This document shows positions 3,906 through 29,923 of a stretch of 41,879 nt of DNA, piece after piece. Positions within the stretch are counted from its first letter, which is position 1. Each line of letters starts with the position of its first letter. This DNA is from an uncultured Acidimicrobiaceae bacterium (lineage in GTDB: Bacteria; Actinomycetota; Acidimicrobiia; Acidimicrobiales; Bog-793), in contig CAIMWD010000020.1 in assembly GCA_903845085.1 (NCBI GenBank), forward strand, positions 1 to 41,879. The letters run 5' to 3'. The notes below the pieces were generated by a model, which worked only from the letters and a program-made list of their open reading frames with translations, did no database searches and was not told where the DNA came from. The position numbers were made by a program, and so were the translations under genes.

Positions 3906-6900
3906 GTGCTTAAGCTCTATGAGTCCTCCCGTTTGGAGCTGCTTATCGAGCCGCTGCTCTCAATTGTGCGAGAGCCACCAGCGGATGCATTTTCTCCCGA
4001 GTGGATCGCGGTGCCAAACGCGGGGATGCAGCGTTGGCTGCGCCTCGAGCTCGCGCGTCACCTCGGTGCGAATGGTGGCAATGAGGACGGGGTTACCGCG
4101 AATATTCAATGGGAGTATCCCGGCTCACTCCGCGCCATTTTGCTGGCCAGTGCGACTACGGATGATCCCCTGCGCGGCGATCCCTGGTCGATCGATCGGT
4201 TGGTGTGGCGTATCCTCAAAGTGCTCCAAGAGGAGAACATCGCCCAAAGGTGTCCAGATCTCCCGCTACTCCCTGAGGGAATGACGCGATATCAACGAGC
4301 GCGCCATCTTGCTGACCTCTACGATCGCTACGACCTACATTCGCCAGAGATGGTGAGGGCATGGACCTCAGGTGAAGATGTTGGGCCTGATGGCGAGAAA
4401 TTATCCACAGATGAGCGTTGGCAGGCGCAGCTGTTTCGCATTGTCCATAGCGAGATCGGTGAACCGTGCCCCGCAGAGCGACTTCCCGAGCTATTTGCGC
4501 GAGTGCGCGAGGGATCCCTCGGGCTCGCACTTCCACAGCGACTGGAGATCTTTGGTCTCTCGACGCTTCCCGGGGGCTCCTCCTTCTTGGAGCTCGCGGA
4601 GGTGGTTGCTACCCAGCACAATCTCTCACTCTTCTTTTTAGATCCCTCACCGACGGCACAAAGGAGGGTTCGTACGCATGCACCAAAGCGATTCGCGGGA
4701 ACGCGGCTCCTGCGTCGCGACGACATCTCTCACAGCTATGTCGAGCATCCCTTAGTCCGTTCATGGTCGCAACCTGCGCGAGAGCGGGCACTTCTCCTCG
4801 GCGAACTTGAGCACACGCCGAAGTACTTCGAAGCTTTGGATGAGCGACCACCGAGGCATCTTCTTGCGGCTTTGCAGGAGGCGATCCTCCGTGACCGTCC
4901 CGCAGAGAGTGGCGTCACTCCGGATGCTGCAGACGGGTCCCTGAATGTTCACGTCTGTCACGGCATTGCACGCCAGGCAGAGGTAATGCGCGACGCAATC
5001 TTGCATCGGCTACAAGATGACCCGACGCTGAGTGAAGAGGAGATCATTATCCTCTGTCCCGACCTTGCGACCGCACTCCCTGCAATTGAACTGGCTTTCG
5101 GTCCCTCTGCGCCCGCCTCCCCAGGCGAAGAGACGGATGCAACTCACCAGGCTGTGGCCGCTGGACGAACTGTCAATTTAAGTCGCATGGTCGCTCCGTT
5201 CCGCTATCAGATCGCCGATCGCTCGCTGCAGATGACTAATCCGCTATTGGAGGCGCTTGTCGCACTTTTGCAGCTGCTCTCTGGTCGTGGGACGGCCTCA
5301 GAGGTAAGTCAGTTCCTCTCGCTTGAGCCGGTTCGACAGAGGTGGGAATTGGGCGAAGAGGATCTTGACACCATCGATCGATGGATGCGCGAGGCGCGCG
5401 TGCGATGGGGACTGACGTCCGAACACCGACGTGATCGGGAACCGCTCTTGGTGGGCTCGCGCAATACGTGGGCCGAGATGGTCGATCGCCTTCTTGCAGG
5501 AGTGGTGATCAGTTCCACGCCGGGATCGCTCATGGTTGATGAGGTTGCACCTATCGCCGTCGATGGTGATGAGATCGACCTCGCAGCGGCAGTGGCAGGA
5601 GTACTCGCTCTCCTCGAGAGGCTGCGCCGAGAGGCGAAGAGCGAAAGGTCGATTTCGCAGTGGTGTGACTTCGTGAAGGGCGCTACGGCGCAGCTCTTCC
5701 TGGCATCTCCCAATGCAACGTGGCAGCAAGAGCGGCTTAATGAGATGTTGCTTCAGCTCATGGAGAGTCAGGTGGACCAAGACAGCACACCCGCGACGAT
5801 CGGGCTAGCTGATCTACGGCGCGTCATCGAGGAGCGAATACGGGCAATTGTGGGGCGAGCAGATTTCTTCAGGGGGGGGATCACCGTAACGTCATTGGTG
5901 CCGCTCAGTTGGGTGCCCTTCCGGGTTGTTGGCATCCTTGGGCTCGATGAGGGTGCCCTAGCCACTTCGAGCTCCATCGGCGATGACCTCCTTGCACGTG
6001 AGGCGCATATTGGCGATCGGGACACTCGGGCTGAGGTCAGACAGGCGCTTCTGGAGTCGCTTTTAAATGCAGAGGACGCAGTGATCATCACTCGCAATGG
6101 CCGTGATGAACGGACCAATGCCGAGGTCTTTCCCGCGACGGTCTATATCGAACTGCGCGATGCAATTGTCGCGCTCATGGGACCACAGGGTTCCGCACTC
6201 TTTACAAGATGGGTGCAACACATCCATCCATACCAGTCGTTTGATCGCGCGAACTTTGTCGCCGATGAGCGTAGTGGTGCGCCCGCGTGGAGCTTTGATT
6301 TCGAGGCGCTGCTAGCTGGCGACCTCGGTGCGCCCGCCAAGACCAAAGCGATTGCGGATGCTCCTCTCCTCTCCCCTCCAGCAGACCTCTTGCCGGTACC
6401 TCTCGGGAGGTTGCAGCAATTCCTCACGCGTCCGGTTCGTACCTTTCTCACAGATCGTCTCGGCGTTGCGTCACACTTTGCAGAGTCACCCCACGATGAT
6501 GTGCTCTCGATAGAGATCGATCCGCTCGACCGATCTACGGTGGGACGCCGACTCCTCGAGATTGTGCGATCGGGACACTCGCTCGAAGAGGCGCTACGGA
6601 GCGAGGCGCAACGTGGCATCGTTCCGCTGGGCCGCGTCGGCGAGATCGGGTTGCGCCAAATCGCGGAAGAGATAGAACTTTTTATCGAGGCCGAAGCAGC
6701 GCTCGCCATCAACAGTGCACGAGAGCTGTCGATCGCAAGCGAATTCACCACAGAGATCGCGGGGGTGCTCTCTGTGTGTAACTACCTCGACCCCAAAACC
6801 TCGCAGGCGTTGCAGGGGACACTGTCAGTCGATTTTCAGCGTGCAAAATCGACGCTTGCGCTCACGGGTGCGTTATCGGTTGCCCTCCTCACTATTGGCC

Positions 6901-12707: not shown

Positions 12708-12887
12708 TCACCACAGCTGGCGCGGGTGGCGATCACCCTGAGGGATCCAACGACACCCACGCGAAACGAGGCGGTCGAACTTCCGCAGCCAGAACCAGGG
12801 AAGGTGGGACATCCCTTGCCGCCAATCGTGTGGCGTTGCGAGATCAAGGAGAGGAGATGGATCTGAGCTTGCGTTGGAGCTCTCCAT
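12708..12887 (-). CDS. Possible 59-aa Trp-rich small protein
   Basis: Read by hand, below the ORF-track cutoff: MESSNASSDP...WFWLRKFDRL...QLW*, preceded by GAGGTGAG 7 nt upstream; fills an otherwise empty 400-bp gap. Confidence 0.3.
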   Translation of the reverse strand: MESSNASSDPSPLLDLATPHDWRQGMSHLPWFWLRKFDRLVSRGCRWIPQGDRHPRQLW

Positions 12888-13031
12888 GTCTCAACTCACC
12901 TCGGCCCTCGCTGTGGTGCGATCCGGATCGGAACCGGAGGAGGCGCAGTTGCTAGCCTTGACCGGTGGCGTGGGTGGATGACGGCGCGCCGTAGGGACGG
13001 GGATGATGATGAGAAAAAGGGTGCTCGCCCG

Positions 13032-14372
13032 ATGAGCACGACACCGCTCGCGAGCTTTGCGGAGCGGCTCGTGGAGCTCTCGCAAAGCTCGCTTCCCGAA
13101 GCGGTCGTTCATGAGACGAGACGGACTTTCATGAATGTGCTCGGAACGGCGATCGGCGCAAGTCGCTCAAGCGAACTTGATGCACTATTGCGTACGGGGG
13201 TCGCTCTGGGTGGCACCGAACTCGCGGTCCTCGGCCGTCACGAGCGCGTCGACCGCTACTATGCGGCACTCGCGCTTGGATTTGCTGCACACTTCGATGA
13301 TTTCGATGACACTCATCTCGTAACGGTGATCCATCCAGGTGCCGCAACGATGGCAGCGATCTATCCCATTGCACTCTGCGAGGAGAGCCCGGCAGATCAG
13401 GTGCTCATGGCAATGGCACTGGGAGTGGAGGCGCAGCTGCGAGTGGGGCTCGCGATGACGCCCTCGCACTACGACCTTGGCTGGCACATCACGGGAACCT
13501 GCGGCGTCATCGGTGCCGCGGTCGCCGCTGGAGTGCTCTTTGAGTTAGATGCTGACCAGCTCGGCGCCGCAATGGCGATCGCTGCAGGAATGACCGTCGG
13601 TCAGCGCGAGGCCTTTGGGACGCCAATCAAGCCATTTCACGCGGGCAAAGCTGCAGCCAATGGTCTACTGGCTGCATCGCTCGCTCGCGCAGGACTCATC
13701 GCCGACACTGGCCTTCTCACCGACGATGGTGGCTACTTCTCCGTGTTGTCAAAGGAGTGGTCTACGCAGTGGCTTGACCCAGCAGATCTTGGCGACCGTT
13801 GGACGGTTCTCGACAACACCTACAAGCCCTTTCCCTGTGGAATTGTCGCGCATCCGGCGATCGAGGCGGCAACACTTTTACACCCTGTACTTCATGGACG
13901 CACCGACGAGGAGATCGTTGAGGTGCGTGTCGCCTGTAATCCCCTCGTGGTGGAGCTGATGGGACGGAGCTCCGCCTCGACGGGATTGGAGGCGCGATTC
14001 TGCGCAATCCATGGGGTCACCGTCGGTCTTCTCTGCGGTCGCGGGGGCCTGCATGAGTTCTCTGATGAGATGTCAGTGGATCCGAGAGTGGTGGCAGTAC
14101 GTGATCGGACACGTCTCTATCCCGATGAGTCGATTGGGCGTCAGGGAGCGACCGTGACCGTCGTATTCGCTGATGGCGCGCAGATAAGCGAGACCGTGGT
14201 TGCTGCCTCCGGTTCGATGGAGCGACCGCTCACCGATGAGCAACTCACGGACAAATTCGAGTCGCTCGTCGCGCCGATCCTTGGCAACCGAGCCGGGCTT
14301 TTGGCGAGTTATGCGATGGAACTTGGCGACCGTACAATTGCCGAGATCGACGCGGTGGTGGTGGGACGGTGA
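13032..14372 (+). CDS. MmgE/PrpD family protein
   Basis: HFDDFDDTH...IHPG, GWHITGTCG, KPFHAG, YKPFPCG..HP; start probably ATG 13032. Confidence 0.9.
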   Translation: MSTTPLASFAERLVELSQSSLPEAVVHETRRTFMNVLGTAIGASRSSELDALLRTGVALGGTELAVLGRHERVDRYYAALALGFAAHFDDFDDTHLVTVIHPGAATMAAIYPIALCEESPADQVLMAMALGVEAQLRVGLAMTPSHYDLGWHITGTCGVIGAAVAAGVLFELDADQLGAAMAIAAGMTVGQREAFGTPIKPFHAGKAAANGLLAASLARAGLIADTGLLTDDGGYFSVLSKEWSTQWLDPADLGDRWTVLDNTYKPFPCGIVAHPAIEAATLLHPVLHGRTDEEIVEVRVACNPLVVELMGRSSASTGLEARFCAIHGVTVGLLCGRGGLHEFSDEMSVDPRVVAVRDRTRLYPDESIGRQGATVTVVFADGAQISETVVAASGSMERPLTDEQLTDKFESLVAPILGNRAGLLASYAMELGDRTIAEIDAVVVGR

Positions 14373-15235
14373 TCGACCTCAGCGAGGAACTCACCACCCG
14401 GCTTATCGATCTCTCAACGGTCACGCTCCCCGAGCGAGCAATGGCGCACGCGCAACAGCTCTGTGATGTCGTGTTGACTCGGGCCCTTCTGCATAGGGAT
14501 GATCCACTGGTCGGGATGCTCGGCGCTGTTTTTGATGAGGTCACCCCTCGCCGGGCAACGCCCTCAGCGATCGGTCCAACCGATCTCGGGGCATTTGCTA
14601 CCTCGCTCGCTGCTGGAGCGCTGGTCGACGTCTCCACGGAGGAGATCAGTGAGCGCATCTCGATTGTTGCAGCTGTTGCTGCACTTACCACTGCACAGCT
14701 CCGGCCGACTATGGGCCTCACCCTCCTCCGCGCGGTAGCGCTCGGTGCGGCGGCAGGCGAGCATCTGGCGAGCGCTCTCGGGCCCGATCACCAGGAGCGC
14801 GGTTGGGACGTAATTGGAAGTGCTGGACGTCTCGCAGCCGGAGTGGCAGCTGGAGTGGTACTGGGTCTGAACGCTGCGCAGCTGCGCGCCGCCTTTGGCT
14901 TCACCAGCACGACCGCAGGTGGTCTCTCTATCGCGGGGGCGCAGCTCGGGATGCTTACCGGTGCACTCGCAGCGCGAGACGGTGTTGAGGCCGCTCTCCT
15001 TGCCCATGAGGGTCTAATCGGTCCGCCGCTCCCCCTTGAGGGACGGCGGGGACTGTTTGCTCTCGTCGCACCAGAGGGTGATCCAGAGGCGCTACTCGCC
15101 GCAATAGGTCACTCCTGGGTCGAGTCTTCCGCAGGCACGCCGCAACGATTTCATGAGGCAGTTGCGACGCTCGCCACGGGAGAGGTGGATCCGCTGATGC
15201 GGCTGTTTGCGGCGGAGCTCGCCGCGGAGCGGTAG
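14369..15235 (+). CDS. Degenerate MmgE/PrpD N-terminal-domain paralog
   Basis: RGWD..GSAG, AARDGVEAALLA, LEGRRGLF match the family N-domain; the His motifs and the C-domain are absent; GTGA overlap with the upstream gene. Confidence 0.75.
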   Translation: MIDLSEELTTRLIDLSTVTLPERAMAHAQQLCDVVLTRALLHRDDPLVGMLGAVFDEVTPRRATPSAIGPTDLGAFATSLAAGALVDVSTEEISERISIVAAVAALTTAQLRPTMGLTLLRAVALGAAAGEHLASALGPDHQERGWDVIGSAGRLAAGVAAGVVLGLNAAQLRAAFGFTSTTAGGLSIAGAQLGMLTGALAARDGVEAALLAHEGLIGPPLPLEGRRGLFALVAPEGDPEALLAAIGHSWVESSAGTPQRFHEAVATLATGEVDPLMRLFAAELAAER

Positions 15236-23946: not shown

Positions 23947-24076
23947 TCGCCACCGTATCGCAGCGGCGCGGGTAGGTGAAGGGCCAAAGCGAACAGGTGC
24001 AGAGGCTGAATTAGGTTTAGCGAGATGGAGGAGACCATCGTCATCTTGAGCATGATTTCAACGGCGAGTGGAACCC

Positions 24077-25144
24077 ATGATTAAGTACCTCGGCTCTAAG
24101 CGCCGGCTCATCACGGAGATCACCACCGCGATCGCCTCCTTCCCCAGCGCAACGAGTGTCACGGATCTCTTCTCGGGGACCTCTCGCGTCGGGCATGCGC
24201 TGAAACGAGCGGGCTATCAGGTGTTTGCCAATGATCACAACAGCTACGCGGCCACCCTCGCCCGATGTTATGTGCAGTGTGACCGCGAGCGGTGGGAGCG
24301 TGATGCGACCGAACTGATTGCTCGATACAACGCGATCTCCGGTGCTCCTGGTTTTGTAACAGAGAGCTACGCAATCGCATCGCGTTACTTTCAAGAGCGC
24401 AATGCGATGCGCATCGACGCCATCCGTGAGGCGATCGCAGAGGACCAGCTTCCAATGGAGCTCGAGGCGATTCTTTTAGTCGCGCTGATGGAAGCGGCCG
24501 ATCGCGTCGATTCCACAACCGGGGTGCAGATGGCATACCTCAAACAGTGGTCCAAGCGCTCGTACAACGATTTGGTTCTTCGCCTGCCAGAGCTGCTCCC
24601 ACAGGCCGTCCATGGTCCGGGTTATGCCTCACAGCTCGAAGCTATCGAGGCAGCTGCGCAGCTGCATGCAGACGTCACCTACCTCGACCCGCCCTACAAC
24701 CAGCACTCCTATCTTGGGAACTATCACATCTGGGAATCGCTGGTCCGTTGGGATCGGCCCGAGCTCTATGGGATCGCGAACAAGCGGGTAGACGTACGTG
24801 AGCGAAAGAGTCCCTTCAACTCAAAACGCGCCTTCGCCGACGCATTTCGCTTGCTTCTGAGCTCGCTCACCTCGCCAGCAATGGTGATTTCCTTCAGCAA
24901 CGAGGGTTTTCTAGAACGCGAGGAGATGGAGGAGATGCTTCGCTCGCTCTATGGCGGGTGCGCACGGGTGCGCACTCTGGTTCACGACTATCCGCGCTAC
25001 GTCGGTGCGCAGATCGGGATTCACAATCCACAGGGTGAGCGAGTTGGCAAGGTGAGTCATCTCCGCAATAACGAGTACCTCTTTCTCGTGGCTCAGCCGG
25101 ACTATCCATCCATCGCTCTCGCCGAGGAGATCGTGCTTACCTAG
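24077..25144 (+). CDS. Orphan N6-adenine DNA methyltransferase (D12 class)
   Basis: IKYLGSKRRL, DLFSGT (SAM-binding motif), YLDPPY (catalytic motif). Confidence 0.9.
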   Translation: MIKYLGSKRRLITEITTAIASFPSATSVTDLFSGTSRVGHALKRAGYQVFANDHNSYAATLARCYVQCDRERWERDATELIARYNAISGAPGFVTESYAIASRYFQERNAMRIDAIREAIAEDQLPMELEAILLVALMEAADRVDSTTGVQMAYLKQWSKRSYNDLVLRLPELLPQAVHGPGYASQLEAIEAAAQLHADVTYLDPPYNQHSYLGNYHIWESLVRWDRPELYGIANKRVDVRERKSPFNSKRAFADAFRLLLSSLTSPAMVISFSNEGFLEREEMEEMLRSLYGGCARVRTLVHDYPRYVGAQIGIHNPQGERVGKVSHLRNNEYLFLVAQPDYPSIALAEEIVLT

Positions 25145-25228
25145 GGGACGCGCGATGGTGAGATGCACTGCTCCTCGCGGCTGAACCTCCCCGGTCGCCG
25201 AAAGCAAAACACCTACACTCGACTCAAG

Positions 25229-26506
25229 ATGCAATCCTTTCACCCGCGAGGTGCGCGCGATGATCGTTCTGGAGTCGCGACGAGCGGTTCGATCGTTTCT
25301 CCCGCTACCTCGTGGATTCTGCCACTTGTGTCAGGGCTCGGTGCGCTTGGTCTCGCGATCTTTCTCGCGGTGCAAAAGTTTGAGGTTGACATGGCGGTCT
25401 ATCTCATGGGTGGCCGTCACGCGTTCAGTGCCTTGCTCTATCGGGTAGAGGTTCCGCGTCGCCCCTACCTTGTCTTTACCTATCCGCCCTTTGCGGCGAT
25501 CCTCTTCGCACCTCTGGCGGATGTCGTCTCGCGCACTACAGCGCAGGTGCTGTGGGCGATCGTCAACATCGCCGCCCTCTTCGGCTTAATTCACCTTTCG
25601 CTCCGGCTGGCGCGTCCCCATTTGGATAGGTTGGAGCGGCGACGTTGGAGTATGGTCCTCCTCCTCCCCACGCTTCTCCTAAATCCAGTTCTCCTCACCG
25701 TGGGTCTTGGCCAGGTCGACCTTGTTCTCTGCCTTGCGGTGCTCTTTGACCTCTGCTCACCCCGTCAGATCGGGCGCGTGACGGTTCCACTTGGTCTGAT
25801 AATTGGTGTCGCCGCATCGATCAAATTGACGCCGCTCCTCTTCATCCCCTATCTGTTGATGACCGGAAGGCGGCGAGGTGCGCTCACCGCAGGTGTGAGC
25901 TTTATCCTCTGCACCACGATCGCCTTCGTGTTAACGCCACGAGCGTCGTGGATTTATTGGAGATTTGATGTCCGAGTGGCCAAGCGGGCAGGCGCGCTCT
26001 TTGATGTCAGTGATCAGAACCTACGGAGCCTGCTCTCTCGGTTTCTCCACGAACCGGTGCCAGGCAATATCCTCTGGCCTCTCGTGCTCGTCATCGCGGT
26101 CGGTGGACTGTTGCTCGCGGCCAGGGCACACCGGTCCTATTCGCCGCTCTTTGGCGTAATTGTCTGCGCCAACACCGAGTTATTGGTCTCGCCAATCACC
26201 TGGACCCACCACCTCGTCTGGATAGTGCCCGCTCTTCTCTGGCTGGGGCTCAGCGCTGATGCTCCACGTCACGGAGCGCTCATCGCACTTGCGTTGGCGC
26301 TGGTGTTTTGGAGCGCGCCGATCTGGCGCGTCCCCACCTCATATATTCCACGCGCTGATCCGATAGAGCTCCATGAACACGGATGGCAGCTCATTGCCGG
26401 AAACGCCTTTGCACTCATTCTCGTGCTCACGCTGGTCGCGACGGCGATCCTTCTCGGCCGGCGGGCCTCACGCTTGTCACGCAGATCGATAGCACCGAGC
26501 CGGTAA
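25229..26506 (+). CDS. GT87 polyprenyl-phosphate mannosyltransferase (PimE-like)
   Basis: D..VY, FTYPPFAA, GQVDL, IKLTP, DQNL, SPITWTHH; start uncertain. Confidence 0.88.
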   Translation: MQSFHPRGARDDRSGVATSGSIVSPATSWILPLVSGLGALGLAIFLAVQKFEVDMAVYLMGGRHAFSALLYRVEVPRRPYLVFTYPPFAAILFAPLADVVSRTTAQVLWAIVNIAALFGLIHLSLRLARPHLDRLERRRWSMVLLLPTLLLNPVLLTVGLGQVDLVLCLAVLFDLCSPRQIGRVTVPLGLIIGVAASIKLTPLLFIPYLLMTGRRRGALTAGVSFILCTTIAFVLTPRASWIYWRFDVRVAKRAGALFDVSDQNLRSLLSRFLHEPVPGNILWPLVLVIAVGGLLLAARAHRSYSPLFGVIVCANTELLVSPITWTHHLVWIVPALLWLGLSADAPRHGALIALALALVFWSAPIWRVPTSYIPRADPIELHEHGWQLIAGNAFALILVLTLVATAILLGRRASRLSRRSIAPSR

Positions 26507-26583
26507 CGAGTCGCCGACTTTGTAGGTCGCGGGAGGAGCGGTCATGGCGACAGAGATCTCTCAGTGGGACACAGATCAAAAAG

Positions 26584-26656
26584 CACCCCCAACGGGATTC
26601 GAACCCGTGTTTCCGCCGTGAAAGGGCGGCGTCCTCGGCCGCTGGACGATGGGGGC
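26584..26656 (-). tRNA. tRNA-Glu(TTC), CCA not encoded
   Basis: GCCCCCA...TGGGGGT-G; anticodon arm CCGCC CTTTCAC GGCGG; T loop GGTTCGAATCC. Confidence 0.96.
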
Positions 26657-26759: not shown

Positions 26760-28049
26760 CTAGCTGATCGACCAGTTTGTTCCCTCGGGAGCATCTTTGA
26801 GTTCGATGCCGAGCGCAATCAATTGGTCACGGATCGCATCGGCATCACTAAATCGTCGTTCGGCTCGAGCGCTCTGGCGAAGCGCGATCAGTATCTCCAT
26901 GAAGGGCGCGAGACGCTCCCTTGGATCGCGCATTCCCTCGACCGCCGCTGCACCAAATTCTGCGATCATTGCGCGGAGTGCGGCGCGAGCGCGGAGAAGG
27001 TCATCCTGACCTGGGGAGTCGGTCGACCATTCATGGAAGGACTGTTCTAGATCGAGGATCACCGAGGTTGCCTCCGGTGAATCACCCCCTGCGAGAGCAA
27101 GGTGAAACGACTGCTCGGCGCCCTGGACGAGATCGAGGAGAAGCGCGGTCGCCTCCGGAGGCGTCGCACCTCCGCCTGAGGGTGTTCCTGCGTTGACGTT
27201 GTGCGTTGAGGTGCGCGAGTGGGAGCTGGGACGAGTTCCCGCAAGAAGATCAGCGATTGCGATCCTTTCTCCAGAGTTATAGATCGTGGAGTCGCCATTT
27301 TTACGGATAGTGATGGTGCCAATGCCACCCATCGTTGCGGTCATCTCGTCAAGGTCAAGGGTGCAGGAGGAGTGCTCATCGATGCCGAAGACGAAGGCCT
27401 GGTCGGGCATCATCTCCTCCATCATGTGGAGACGTCGCTCTCCGAGATAACAGAATCGAGTGTCGTGTGTTCCGCCCTCTGCATTGTTGTAGTGCGGGAT
27501 CACCGCCGCATGAATGCCAAAGAGCGAGAGGAGATCGAGTCCCTCGAGCCAGTAGGGATCCATGCCTACCTTGTAGATCTCATAGACCGGAACGGTCAAC
27601 GCGCCAAGGGTCAGTGCCGCAGCGCTCGCGAAGGTCACGGCGCCTCCGGTAGAGATCTTCTCCGAAAGAAGCTGCGGAACGATCGTCTCCTGCCACTGTC
27701 GCAGCGCGTAAGAGGGACTACCGGGACCCGAAAAGACGTACCGGGATCGGCGGATGTTGGTCGTGAGTGCCTCGGAGAGAAAGCGCGGCTCCGCCTGTGT
27801 GGGGTCATCTGGGTCGATGCCGCTCGCGTTGGTAATCGTGGTGGAAAGACTCTCGCGAAAGTAGAGCTGCACCCGCTGCGTGAGCTCGTTCGCATTCTCT
27901 TGAAAACCGAAGGGAGTGTCGAGCAACACCGAGGGAACGGGGCGTGCGCCGAGCCGTTCGAGGATCTCGCGGTGCACCTTCACCATGGTCGGTGAGGTCT
28001 CACCGGAGCCCATCAGTGTCAGTAGTCGCGGTAGCGCCTCATCCGTCAT
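26760..28049 (-). CDS. Peptidase S51/cyanophycinase-like hydrolase fused to a CysRS-type anticodon-binding domain
   Basis: N-part LMGSGE, FSGPGS, FASAAA (Ser), IPHYNN (His), GIDE (Glu). C-part 'LRQSARAERRFSDADAIRDQLIALGIELKDAPEGTNW' resembles the CysRS C-terminus. Confidence 0.8.
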   Translation of the reverse strand: MTDEALPRLLTLMGSGETSPTMVKVHREILERLGARPVPSVLLDTPFGFQENANELTQRVQLYFRESLSTTITNASGIDPDDPTQAEPRFLSEALTTNIRRSRYVFSGPGSPSYALRQWQETIVPQLLSEKISTGGAVTFASAAALTLGALTVPVYEIYKVGMDPYWLEGLDLLSLFGIHAAVIPHYNNAEGGTHDTRFCYLGERRLHMMEEMMPDQAFVFGIDEHSSCTLDLDEMTATMGGIGTITIRKNGDSTIYNSGERIAIADLLAGTRPSSHSRTSTHNVNAGTPSGGGATPPEATALLLDLVQGAEQSFHLALAGGDSPEATSVILDLEQSFHEWSTDSPGQDDLLRARAALRAMIAEFGAAAVEGMRDPRERLAPFMEILIALRQSARAERRFSDADAIRDQLIALGIELKDAPEGTNWSIS

Positions 28050-28641
28050 GATCTACCTCCGGCATCGGTGTTCCGTCCCAACGCAGGCCGCCGAGTGGCT
28101 CTCCCCATGGATCCCCTGGAAGCTCCACCTGATTATCTGGAATCGGGTCAGGGAGCTCTTCGGCGAGCACCGAGATAATCGCCTCTTGGAGATAGGAGAG
28201 AAAGTGGTAACAGATCCACTCGCTATAGAGGGGATCGTCCGGCGCGACGTCGTGCTCATCCTCGGTAATGCCGAGCAGTGAGCCGAACATGAGTCGCAGG
28301 CTCGATATCGCCCCAAGCCACCGTTCGAGCTCGCTCATATCAAGATGTTGTGCAGTGGCAGAGTTACGAAGCACCAAGAGCGACTCGCGATGGTGGTCGA
28401 GAAGATCACGGCGCATTAGTCGGGTGTAGGCGTCATCGGCTGAGGCGTCGGTTGGATAGGCGGGCGGAAAGAGGCGTCGCAGCGTCTCGGGCACGATCGC
28501 CTCGGGATTCACCACTTTGTCGAGCTCATCTAACATCCGCTGAGGAAGAGCGGCCAGCAGCTCACGCGCGTTTTCAGGAAGGTGAATGTCGTAGCCACCG
28601 GAGGCAACTGCGGTGATGGGACGATCCTCAGCGAGACTCAT
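28039..28641 (-). CDS. DUF2017-family protein
   Basis: [35 protein letters not shown]; follows clpS with an ATGA overlap. Confidence 0.85.
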
Positions 28642-28961
28642 CCAGATTGCTCCATCGTCGCCCAAAGGCCATGGCGATGTAGCCGGGCGACATCGAGCTC
28701 TGCTCGCTCGCGCGACCCGGTTGCGACGACGGCACGTCCCTTGTGGTGCACATCCAACATGAGTTTTGTCGCCTTCTCCTTTGAGTAGCCGAAGAGCTTT
28801 TGCAGTACGAAGGTGACGTAGCTCATGAGGTTTATGGGGTCGTTCCAGACGATCACGAGCCAGGGGCGGTCAAAGGAGACATGCTCCTCCGCACGGGCGA
28901 CGTCGATGACCTCTGGCGATGCCTCGATTGTCGAGGCGCGGGATATATGCACGTCTCTCAT
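28638..28961 (-). CDS. clpS: ClpS N-degron adaptor
   Basis: [25 protein letters not shown]...MLDVHHKG...GLWATM. Confidence 0.96.
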
Positions 28962-29923
28962 CCCTGTCCAACCCGGTGTGCCTCTGCCATCGGGGCATCG
29001 ACGCTGTGCTCATTGATGCTCTGTGGTGTTCGTAGGTGGAGGTAAAACCAGATCATGGTGCACCAGAGGGTGGTGACTCCGGCAAGGTGGAGCTCCACCA
29101 CGATCGCGGAATCATGGAGAAAGTACTGCGTATAACCAAGGACTCCCTGAAGTGCCATCAGTTCGAAGAGCCATCGGGCTCGTCGTTCGATCGCAAAGGG
29201 CGGTTTGGCGTAGTGAATCGCAAACAGTGAGGCAAGGGTGAGGCCAATGAGAAAGAGCGCGACATCGGCATGGAGCTCTGCGATGTCATGGAAGGCGATG
29301 GGAATACGTCGCGTGCCGGGAGCGCCGGCGTGGGGGCCAGATCCAGAGACCACGGAGCCGATCGACACAAGGAGGGTCAGTACTCCGAGGAGGAGACGGT
29401 AAAGCCAGATGAGCGTCGGATCAAGCACAAAGGTGCTGCCGCGAGGTCCGTAGATGGCGCGGAAGGCGAGTATGAGCGCGTCAGCCAACACGACGAAGGT
29501 GAGGACGAAGTGCACTGAAACCAGATAGGGATTGAGTTTTGTCAAAACCACGATGCCACCGAGAACGATCTGAGCGATCAGACCGAGTACGAGACCAAAG
29601 CTGAGCCAGGTCAGATCGCGTCGTCGCTCGCGAAGGCAGAGTGCAAAGAGATAGGCGAGGATCGAGATCACGCTTACCGCAGCGGTAATGCAACGGTTCC
29701 CAAACTCAATGAGTGGGTGATAGGAGAGTGCAGAGGTGAATTGGTGTTGGTAGCAGCTAGGCCAGTCCGGGCAACCGAGGCCCGAGCCGGTCAGGCGCAC
29801 GGCGCCTCCGGTGAGGACTAAAAGTGCGTAACAACCGGCAGCGGCGACGGCGACGAGGATAAAAATCCTCTGACTGATCTCTGGCTTACGCACGATTTCC
29901 CCATCGTAGGGCGCGAGGCTCAT
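28958..29923 (-). CDS. ctaA: COX15/CtaA heme A synthase family
   Basis: [43 protein letters not shown]. Confidence 0.9.

Follow-up and report, generated by a model that had tools for sequence, protein, structure and literature searches.

A divergent S51-type hydrolase with a CysRS-derived anticodon-binding tail, a possible tRNA-Cys-guided enzyme family of Actinomycetota

The window, a 41,879-nt stretch of a Bog-793 genome, carries three overlapping genes on its minus strand. The first is clpS (28638..28961, minus strand), which encodes 107 residues and matches Pfam ClpS at 2.6e-24 and NCBIfam NF000668 with 140 bits against a cut-off of 86. The second encodes a DUF2017 protein of 208 residues (28039..28665, minus strand; Pfam DUF2017 at 2.8e-23). 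Its start is more likely the ATG at 28641, which overlaps the stop codon of clpS within an ATGA, than the TTG at 28665. The third gene, taken from the list of open reading frames (26760..28049, stop codon included, minus strand), encodes a 429-residue two-domain protein composed of an S51-type hydrolase and a CysRS-type anticodon-binding tail. It begins with an ATG, and its first 11 nt are shared with the end of the DUF2017 gene. The preliminary description of this locus had reported these overlaps, and the coordinates are exactly as it gave them. The three genes are probably co-translated in the Bog-793 genome. A tRNA-Glu(UUC) gene called by ARAGORN (26583..26656, minus strand) lies 104 nt downstream of the 429-residue ORF on the same strand, and is followed by a divergent GT87 gene. 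A terminator scan of the gap between the ORF and the tRNA gene gave no terminator-like site. A tRNA-Glu gene is likewise placed behind the family gene in two other loci, L001 and L041.

Residues 1–275 of the 429-residue protein (27225..28049, minus strand) form a divergent S51 hydrolase domain of the PepE/cyanophycinase-like type, as identified by hhalign, profile search, and Foldseek. Aligned with hhalign to a bona fide S51 protein, itself matched by Pfam S51 at 1.6e-20, the family profile scored a probability of 97.4% and an E-value of 1.1e-11 over 224 columns. A profile built from 40 family sequences matched the S51 structure 6nqc, a ‘cyanophycinase-like exopeptidase’ of acI-B1, at 2.5e-11. 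The AF2 model of the protein has a pLDDT of 88.6 and a pTM of 0.78, and Foldseek searches with this model retrieved 6nqc (2.7e-13), PepE (6a4r and 1fy2), and cyanophycinase (3en0) with TM(target) values of 0.73–0.78, the S51 structures overall scoring between 2.7e-13 and 1e-9 at a probability of 1.00 with TM(target) values of 0.66–0.78. The fold is hence the same as that of the aspartyl dipeptidase PepE and of the cyanophycinases CphB/E. Pfam Peptidase_S51 (PF03575) nevertheless gave no match to the protein at E<=0.1, and in a genome-wide scan at E<=0.01 three other genes, all canonical S51 genes, were matched while the 429-residue gene was absent. In the Atlas, PF03575 is present in 16% of one look-alike cluster. 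The N-terminal domain is therefore S51 by profile and fold, though it lies under the reach of the curated Pfam model.

The motifs GSGE, G-x-G-S/N-P, SA(G/A)A, PH(F/Y), and G(I/V)DE are common to S51 proteins and the family. Within them, three residues could be assigned as a putative catalytic triad on the grounds that they occupy the S51 family positions. Ser142 in FASAAA (codon at 27624..27626, minus strand) aligns with the SAGA serine of S51 proteins and is the putative nucleophile, His186 in PHYNN (27492..27494, minus strand) aligns with the PHF/PHY histidine and is the putative general base, and Glu225 in GIDEH (27375..27377, minus strand) aligns with the S51 GIDE motif and is the putative third member. 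All three motifs had been noticed in the preliminary description, and each of the three residues is invariant in 146 of 146 sequences, the set of distinct family sequences used for all conservation counts here. The triad of PepE is Ser120-His157-Glu192 (PMC9239234), and the family has this Ser-His-Glu arrangement in common with it. The family differs from S51 enzymes in having invariant motifs of its own, among them FQEN, PVYEIYK, and HYxNxEGGxHDT, in addition to escaping the Pfam model. It also differs in carrying a CysRS-derived tail of about 130 residues, which no characterised S51 enzyme has.

The hydrolase domain is connected to this tail by a low-complexity linker (residues 276–302; 27144..27224, minus strand), whose pLDDT is below 50 at residues 276–301 and whose length varies between 0 and 64 residues across the family. 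The tail has two parts. Residues 303–383 (26901..27143, minus strand) are a helical region with four helices in the AF2 model, homologous to the helical bundle of CysRS. Residues 384–429 (26763..26900, minus strand) are a CysS_C anticodon-binding domain, matched by PF23493 at residues 387–426 (25.8 bits; curated cut-off 23). A phmmer search of the PDB retrieved the CysRS chains 6ujd (3.4e-6), 8qhp, and 1li5. The 40-sequence family profile matched CysRS structures at 7.6e-13 (8qhp) to 1.7e-10, and its alignment spans helical region and tail together, with residues ~300–428 corresponding to 359–486 of 8qhp and 335–459 of E. coli CysRS (1li5). Foldseek also found CysRS in its complex with tRNA-Cys (1u0b, chain 1u0b_B) at 3e-4. 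Both the linker and the CysRS-like tail thus stand as first described, and the fold of each domain, whose examination the preliminary description had proposed, bears out its division of the protein. Its DALR-like helix is borne out in part: since Pfam DALR_2 gave no match to the protein, what stands is the alignment to the CysRS helical bundle. The class I Rossmann catalytic core of CysRS, with its HIGH and KMSKS motifs, is absent from the 429-residue protein, again as originally noted. NCBIfam cysS (TIGR00435) accordingly covers only residues 325–427, which equal model positions 361–464, with 29.7 bits against a cut-off of 340.

We then compared the tail with E. coli CysRS residue by residue. 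In the HMMER alignment, at an offset of +32, Arg391, Arg395, Asp404, and Arg407 correspond to Arg423, Arg427, Asp436, and Arg439, residue 400 corresponds to Trp432, and Asp419 and Trp426 correspond to Asp451 and Trp458. Arg391, Arg395, Asp404, Arg407, Asp419, and Trp426 are invariant in all 146 sequences, and position 400 is always aromatic (Phe in 115, Tyr in 23, and Trp in 8). According to PMC12684709, Arg427 and Asp436 hydrogen-bond G34 of tRNA-Cys, which also stacks on Trp432 and shares a water network with Arg423. PMC13449415 names Arg427, Trp432, Asp436, and Arg439 as the four anticodon-domain residues mutated to alter anticodon specificity. Positions 391, 395, 400, 404, and 407 of the tail are thus equivalent to the residues with which E. 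coli CysRS contacts G34 of the GCA anticodon, and binding of the anticodon by the tail is predicted from this correspondence. The conserved Arg, Asp, and Trp residues could be partly structural. Some family members are named ‘CysS/YqeB C-terminal domain-containing protein’ by NCBI, a naming that suggests that this small domain also occurs in proteins not related to tRNA.

The genome has a true CysRS elsewhere (G000:C5:3973-5322), which contains HVGH and KMSKS. In this genome and five relatives, CysRS is full-length (model positions 1–465), and each also has an MshC-like paralogue without the tail. Because a complete CysRS is present, the tail of the 429-residue protein is not a synthetase remnant in use, and the idea that it supplies the anticodon domain to CysRS in trans was rejected. 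The tail is 45% identical to that of the genome’s own CysRS over 38 residues, and the net charges of the two tails match. The acidity of the tail was considered as an argument against RNA binding and was rejected, as the genome’s own CysRS tail is equally acidic.

We tentatively favour, at a likelihood somewhat short of even, the reading that the protein is a Ser-His-Glu hydrolase or acyl-transferase guided by tRNA-Cys, with the acyl group at the 3′ end of the tRNA as its target. The protein would be an S51-type hydrolase tethered via a flexible linker to helical-bundle and anticodon-binding domains copied from CysRS. Through its tail the protein would dock onto tRNA-Cys, or at any rate onto a tRNA with G34, and the linker would let the hydrolase reach the 3′ end, where Ser142 may attack the ester of an aminoacyl group or of an N-blocked aminoacyl or peptidyl group. 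The acyl group could then be hydrolysed, which would make the protein a trans-acting deacylase or quality-control factor, or be passed to an acceptor amine in an aminoacyl transfer. This idea gains weight because the equivalents of the tRNA-Cys anticodon contacts are invariant in the family. Among the points against it, an anticodon reader alone cannot sense the cargo at the 3′ end, and we know of no natural mischarging of tRNA-Cys. The more specific proposal of a new class of tRNA-specific trans-acting enzyme, either an esterase for aminoacyl- or peptidyl-tRNA-Cys or an aminoacyl transferase that depends on Cys-tRNA and works via a seryl-ester intermediate, is somewhat less likely. Hydrolysis of acyl esters on specific tRNAs in trans is the job of YbaK, ProXp, AlaX, DTD, and peptidyl-tRNA hydrolase, but the folds and catalytic chemistry of these enzymes are unrelated to those of the 429-residue protein. 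To our knowledge, free-standing trans-editing factors generally have no aminoacyl-tRNA synthetase anticodon-binding domain. The nearest chemical precedent for attack on an aminoacyl-A76 ester is MccG, an S51 serine hydrolase that cleaves aminoacyl-nucleotide bonds. As described in PMC9239234, MccG differs from the 429-residue protein in having a Ser-His-Asp triad, no RNA-binding domain, and a small-molecule substrate.

The protein might instead be an ordinary S51-type peptidase whose substrates are dipeptides (Asp-X or isoAsp) or some other small amide or ester, with its tail re-used for oligomerisation, partner binding, or regulation; we consider this an appreciable but minority possibility. 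Its fold and triad resemble those of PepE and cyanophycinase-like enzymes, and JGI labels members of the family as ‘cyanophycinase-like exopeptidase’. The commonest upstream partner of the family gene is an alpha/beta hydrolase gene, found in 15 of 40 loci with a 4-nt overlap, and in locus L002 a canonical S51 gene directly follows the family gene. Both neighbours are as compatible with the catabolism of peptides or small molecules as with a role on tRNA. The upstream alpha/beta hydrolase gave only weak matches below cut-off, for example a PcaD-like one, and assignment of a specific function to it was dropped for this reason. The Bog-793 genome has no clear orthologue of it, the best candidate being 34% identical over part of its length and containing an internal TGA. 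Against an ordinary peptidase stand the three canonical S51 genes that the genome already has, and the absence of a detectable cyanophycin synthetase from the 96.5%-complete assembly, where the best score was 70.8 bits against a cut-off of 850; a role in cyanophycin degradation was deprioritised on the latter ground. Such a peptidase also leaves unexplained why exactly the positions of the CysRS anticodon contacts are invariant. A different use of the S51 fold would be detoxification, with a MccG-like hydrolase acting on aminoacyl-nucleotide antibiotics or aminoacyl-adenylate mimics and the tail being a relic or a decoy. MccG attacks processed microcin C by hydrolysing its aminoacyl-nucleotide carboxamide bond, and standalone MccG genes are numerous (PMC9239234), yet the MccG clade, so far as that source describes it, has Asp as the acidic residue whereas the 429-residue protein has Glu, as PepE does. 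Detoxification is improbable also in that the tail corresponds to the anticodon reader of CysRS rather than to its adenylate pocket and that no biosynthetic cluster was found near the gene. Conservation of the anticodon contacts would equally suit an enzyme guided to the tRNA body or the anticodon loop, for instance one removing an amino-acid-type modification, or a peptidase switched by tRNA-Cys binding. There is a parallel for such targeting in DALRD3 with METTL2, where an anticodon domain derived from an aminoacyl-tRNA synthetase directs another enzyme to specific tRNAs. We regard these variants as quite improbable, as no amide or ester modification of tRNA-Cys that could be hydrolysed is known to us and an anticodon reader cannot report the charging state.

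The preliminary description had tied the protein to ClpS and DUF2017, either as a writer of N-degrons or as a translation-quality-control arm feeding Clp proteolysis. In favour of this, the three genes overlap as described above, and they do likewise in L001, a relative whose protein is 63% identical. Local adjacency is, however, the sole argument for an N-degron writer, and cysteine is not known to be an N-terminal residue that ClpS recognises. We surveyed the linkage both from the family loci, drawn from a single-protein scan of genome contigs, which gave 11 loci, and from wider genome sampling, and from the DUF2017 loci. Of the 40 other family loci, a single one, L001 itself, has clpS-DUF2017 next to the family gene. 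Of the 29 other DUF2017 loci surveyed in the class, none has the family gene behind DUF2017, whereas 28 have clpS beside DUF2017. Four genomes (G032, G062, G105, and G147) have the family gene and DUF2017 on one contig but at least ~236 kb apart, and two that are 99% complete (G173 and G225) have the family gene and gave no DUF2017 match. The genes behind DUF2017 elsewhere in the class vary (pyrR/pyrB, TerC, enoyl-CoA hydratase, and cation efflux), with no recurrent peptidase among those loci. The functional coupling had been staked on linkage to clpS in other genomes, and it was rejected as a conserved feature on these counts. A joint function with ClpS and DUF2017 is thus very improbable, being largely refuted already by synteny, and the gene order that puts it behind clpS-DUF2017 is specific to the lineage and lies outside the mechanism. 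The locus does resemble a mycobacterial operon, clpS-aosR(Rv1332, DUF2017)-Rv1333-mec-cysO-cysM, in which AosR has an N-terminal CxxxC redox motif and activates mec-cysO-cysM (PMC8280819). The two have in common the order clpS, DUF2017, hydrolase gene and a cysteine theme, but at the Bog-793 locus no mec, cysO, or cysM follows and the third gene belongs to a different family. Rv1333 we take to be a DmpA-type hydrolase. The DUF2017 neighbour scores 36.7 bits with NCBIfam AosR (NF051854), below the cut-off of 260, and its translation contains one Cys and no CxxxC motif. As the clpS-DUF2017 neighbourhood is a local rearrangement, it provides no basis for annotating the family or for extending the ClpS/AosR story to it.

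The family thus defined combines a putative hydrolase with a predicted anticodon reader, and is uncharacterised and widespread in Actinomycetota; a search of the open-access literature found no paper on it. If the tail still reads tRNA-Cys, its members would be the first S51-fold enzymes known to act on tRNA, and cells would have in them a novel means of policing or exploiting a single aminoacyl-tRNA species. The family has at least 7964 database matches, and full-length members turned up in 31 of the 401 genomes sampled from the phylum. It is mainly from Actinomycetota and, judging by feature-based look-alike clusters, may also occur in Chloroflexota. The gene is kept in genomes named ‘Candidatus Actinomarina’, and this retention, together with the thousands of sequences, suggests a housekeeping role. 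In the Actinomarina versions, the helical region is shorter and the tail is retained.

The N-terminal part of the 429-aa protein can be placed among the S51 peptidases. The Pfam S51 model did not match the protein, and the assignment is based on three comparisons. A family profile built from an alignment of 40 members aligned with a Pfam-verified S51 protein over 224 columns (97.4% probability, E 1.1e-11), and its positions 3–257 matched the S51 structure 6nqc, a 'cyanophycinase-like exopeptidase' (2.5e-11). Foldseek on the AF2 model (pLDDT 88.6, pTM 0.78) ranked 6nqc (2.7e-13), PepE (6a4r, 1fy2, and 7ffp), and cyanophycinase (3en0 and 7uqw) at the top, with TM(target) values of 0.66–0.78 for the S51 structures. 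In the model, an α/β domain (residues 1–275) is followed by a disordered stretch (276–301), four long helices (304–396), and a helix with a β-hairpin (400–428). The disordered linker varies from 0 to 64 residues across the family.

The C-terminal part resembles that of CysRS. Pfam CysS_C (PF23493) matches residues 387–426 with 25.8 bits (cut-off 23), and the NCBIfam cysS model aligns residues 325–427 to its positions 361–464 only. CysRS structures were matched by the protein itself at 3.4e-6 to 5.5e-4 (phmmer) and by the family profile at 7.6e-13 (8qhp) and 1.7e-10 (E. coli 1li5, residues 335–459), while Foldseek matched the tail to the CysRS–tRNA-Cys complex 1u0b at 3e-4. The tail is 45% identical to that of the genome's own CysRS over 38 residues and is about as acidic, with a charge of −2 versus −3 over the last 46 residues and −8 versus −11 over the preceding 81. 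The preliminary description, which had read S51-like Ser/His/Glu motifs, a low-complexity linker, and a CysRS-type tail without synthetase core from the sequence, is borne out in each of these respects. Separately, Atlas contains clusters of 103–176 aa proteins, mainly of Actinomycetota, that comprise nothing but the CysS_C domain; these may be true free-standing anticodon-binding proteins or short-contig fragments.

We then inspected residue conservation in 146 distinct family sequences (120 database matches plus translated loci, with duplicates removed). The putative triad Ser142, His186, and Glu225 is kept in all 146, and so are the motifs FQxN (49–52), GPGSP (108–112), SAAA (142–145), PxYExxK (154–160), and DE (224–225); GSGE (14–17) is kept in all but one sequence, which is gapped there. 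In the tail, Arg391, Arg395, Asp404, Arg407, Asp419, and Trp426 are invariant, and an aromatic residue always occupies position 400 (115 F, 23 Y, and 8 W). Because the HMMER alignment to E. coli CysRS is ungapped over the conserved stretch with an offset of +32, Arg391, Arg395, position 400, Asp404, Arg407, Asp419, and Trp426 correspond to E. coli Arg423, Arg427, Trp432, Asp436, Arg439, Asp451, and Trp458, of which Asp451 presumably helps to read C35/A36. According to the excerpts of PMC12684709, G34 of tRNA-Cys in 1u0b stacks on Trp432, is hydrogen-bonded to both Arg427 and Asp436, and takes part in a water network that includes Asp436 and Arg423. As excerpted from PMC13449415, four anticodon-domain residues, Arg427, Trp432, Asp436, and Arg439, were mutated so that CysRS would recognise a CUA anticodon instead. 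The PepE triad, Ser120-His157-Glu192 in the excerpt of PMC9239234, has spacings of 37 and 35 residues, compared with 44 and 39 here. Hence, the predicted catalytic and anticodon-contact positions are both under absolute constraint.

The genome carries a complete CysRS elsewhere (contig C5, 3973–5322; 428.8 bits, model positions 1–465, HVGH and KMSKS), and we therefore rejected the 429-aa protein as a synthetase remnant. The cysS match of a second CysRS-like gene (contig C29, 21716–22666) stops at position 317, so this paralogue lacks the anticodon domain and appears MshC-like. Five relatives likewise have a full CysRS and a tail-less paralogue.

The family is large. At E ≤ 0.001 it has at least 7964 matches among 8000 scored candidates, mostly from Acidimicrobiales MAGs, under the names 'hypothetical protein', 'cyanophycinase-like exopeptidase' (JGI), and 'CysS/YqeB C-terminal domain-containing protein' (NCBI). 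In Atlas look-alike clusters, which name Actinomycetota and Chloroflexota, 58–77% of members have CysS_C, and in one cluster 16% have Peptidase_S51. Among 401 evenly drawn genomes of the phylum, the window's included, 163 have some match, mostly to the C-termini of ordinary CysRS genes, and 31 have a best match at E ≤ 1e-60 that covers the hydrolase domain. These carriers are the window's genome, 14 of 22 others of the same order, two of eight of the same class, and 14 further genomes; eleven genomes flagged unpublished are counted in denominators only and none is a carrier. The version in named 'Candidatus Actinomarina' genomes (358–359 aa) has a shortened helical region and an intact final domain. 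The sequences are already public under generic names and the parts are known; in the open-access literature we found no paper on the family, and the combination of S51 hydrolase and CysRS tail, with its likely use, is not described there.

In the window, the gene (26760–28049, minus strand) belongs to a closely spaced run on that strand. A terminator-like hairpin at ~31680 precedes genes for an ABC ATPase, an ABC-2 permease, and CtaA/COX15 (28958–29923), which are followed by clpS (28638–28961; 107 aa, Pfam ClpS 2.6e-24) and the DUF2017 gene (28039–28665; 208 aa from a TTG start, Pfam DUF2017 2.8e-23). For the latter, ATG 28641, which makes an ATGA overlap with the clpS stop, is a more likely start than TTG 28665. 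The 429-aa ORF begins with an ATG and shares 11 nt with the end of the DUF2017 gene, as the described run of overlapping genes had it. The DUF2017 protein scores 36.7 against the AosR equivalog model (cut-off 260) and is therefore not to be called AosR; it has a single cysteine and lacks a CxxxC motif.

The functional coupling to clpS-DUF2017 that had been proposed from this run is not supported, since the linkage is not conserved. By phmmer, we compared the window's ClpS, DUF2017, and CtaA proteins with every ORF in the 41 family loci (L001–L041, the window being L012), with flanks of 5 kb for L001–L011 and 1.5 kb for the others, enough for both clpS and DUF2017. The order CtaA-clpS-DUF2017-family gene recurs in one of the 40 other loci, L001, an Acidimicrobiales MAG whose protein is 63% identical to the window's. 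Of 61 genomes of the class, 45 contain PF09438; clpS adjoins DUF2017 in 28 of the 29 other DUF2017 loci examined, and the family gene follows DUF2017 in none of the 29. Where both genes share a contig they lie far apart, at 22 and 260 kb (G032), 1.435 and 1.097 Mb (G062), 0.144 and 2.318 Mb (G105), and 1.500 and 3.717 Mb (G147), and two genomes with the family gene, G173 and G225 (both 99% complete), have no PF09438 match. Genes after DUF2017 elsewhere in the class are pyrR/pyrB, TerC, enoyl-CoA hydratase, a cation-efflux protein, and small unknown ORFs, with no recurrent peptidase among them. The mycobacterial gene in the corresponding slot, Rv1333, belongs to a DmpA-type family. As genome family f2 keeps CtaA-clpS-DUF2017 without the gene (L059, L060, L064, and L068), the gene has apparently entered this slot within the lineage of the window. 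In the window's order, clpS-DUF2017 is preceded by a CtaA or UbiA-family (heme O synthase-like) gene; an efp-nusB-clpS-DUF2017-pyrR/pyrB arrangement occurs elsewhere in the class (L049, L052, L056, L066, and L067).

The family gene is linked far more consistently to a gene for an α/β-fold hydrolase (Pfam Abhydrolase_1/6, Hydrolase_4) than to clpS-DUF2017. The hydrolase gene immediately precedes it in the same orientation in 15 of the 29 loci L013–L041 (L013–L017, L021–L023, L025, L027, L028, and L034–L037; e.g. L013 479–1501) and in none of L001–L011. In the ten loci whose coordinates were compared, the hydrolase reading frame stops at the predicted family start or runs into it. The 15 genomes span at least five families (f2, f3, f13, f21, and f58), kin among them not being independent. 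For this hydrolase, NCBIfam gave only weak sub-cut-off matches, e.g. PcaD-like, and the window's genome has no clear orthologue of it. An ABC-3 metal-transporter permease gene often lies downstream, convergent. In L002, a canonical Peptidase_S51 gene (5032–5823, plus strand; Pfam 1.6e-20, NCBIfam cyanophycinase 65.5 bits against a cut-off of 126.6) overlaps the family gene's 3′ end, making a tandem of tailed and untailed S51 paralogues. The tRNA scan took in 33 of the 41 loci. A tRNA-Glu(UUC) gene lies directly downstream on the same strand in the window (26583–26656, gap 104 nt), L001 (6348–6421, 64 nt), and L041 (2665–2740, 19 nt), the last a distant member with 39% identity, and L031 is flanked by tRNA-Arg, tRNA-His, and tRNA-Lys. 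The window scan found no terminator-like site within the 104-nt gap, and co-transcription of the family gene with tRNA genes is possible.

In this family, an S51 hydrolase with an intact-looking triad is joined to a predicted CysRS-type anticodon reader with intact G34 contacts. The tail would dock on tRNA-Cys or at least a G34 tRNA, the variable disordered linker would let the hydrolase reach the acceptor end, and Ser142, the putative nucleophile, would attack the acyl ester, resulting in deacylation or acyl transfer. We put forward this tRNA-Cys-guided hydrolase or acyl-transferase, in predicted activity and binding alike, tentatively. Such chemistry would not be exotic, as MccG, an S51 enzyme, cleaves an aminoacyl-nucleotide bond (excerpt of PMC9239234). 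The neighbours in its operons resemble hydrolases of small molecules or peptides, which speaks against this proposal. A plain peptidase that re-uses the tail for another purpose is a somewhat less likely alternative. A ClpS/N-degron role is highly improbable, given the linkage at one of 40 family loci and none of 29 DUF2017 loci; Cys is not known to be a ClpS N-degron. A role in cyanophycin breakdown is improbable in this organism, because we found no cyanophycin synthetase in the 96.5%-complete genome, which has three canonical S51 genes elsewhere. Other explanations take small shares; for one of them, a tRNA-guided enzyme that acts on the tRNA body or anticodon loop, DALRD3 offers an analogy of an aaRS-derived anticodon domain that targets another enzyme to tRNA. 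If the link to tRNA is proven, the family would be a new class of tRNA-directed enzyme.

The remainder of the window, with katG-fur, recBCD, prpD, and two-component genes, looks like ordinary chromosome. Two MmgE/PrpD-family ORFs stand in a row (12867–15232, plus strand); the second matches part of the N-terminal domain only (model positions 104–242), which may reflect gene duplication or fragmentation. Genes for a D12-class N6-adenine DNA methyltransferase (24068–25144, plus strand), with no obvious restriction partner seen, and a GT87 mannosyltransferase-like membrane protein (25163–26506, plus strand) follow one another and run divergently from the tRNA-Glu/hydrolase unit.
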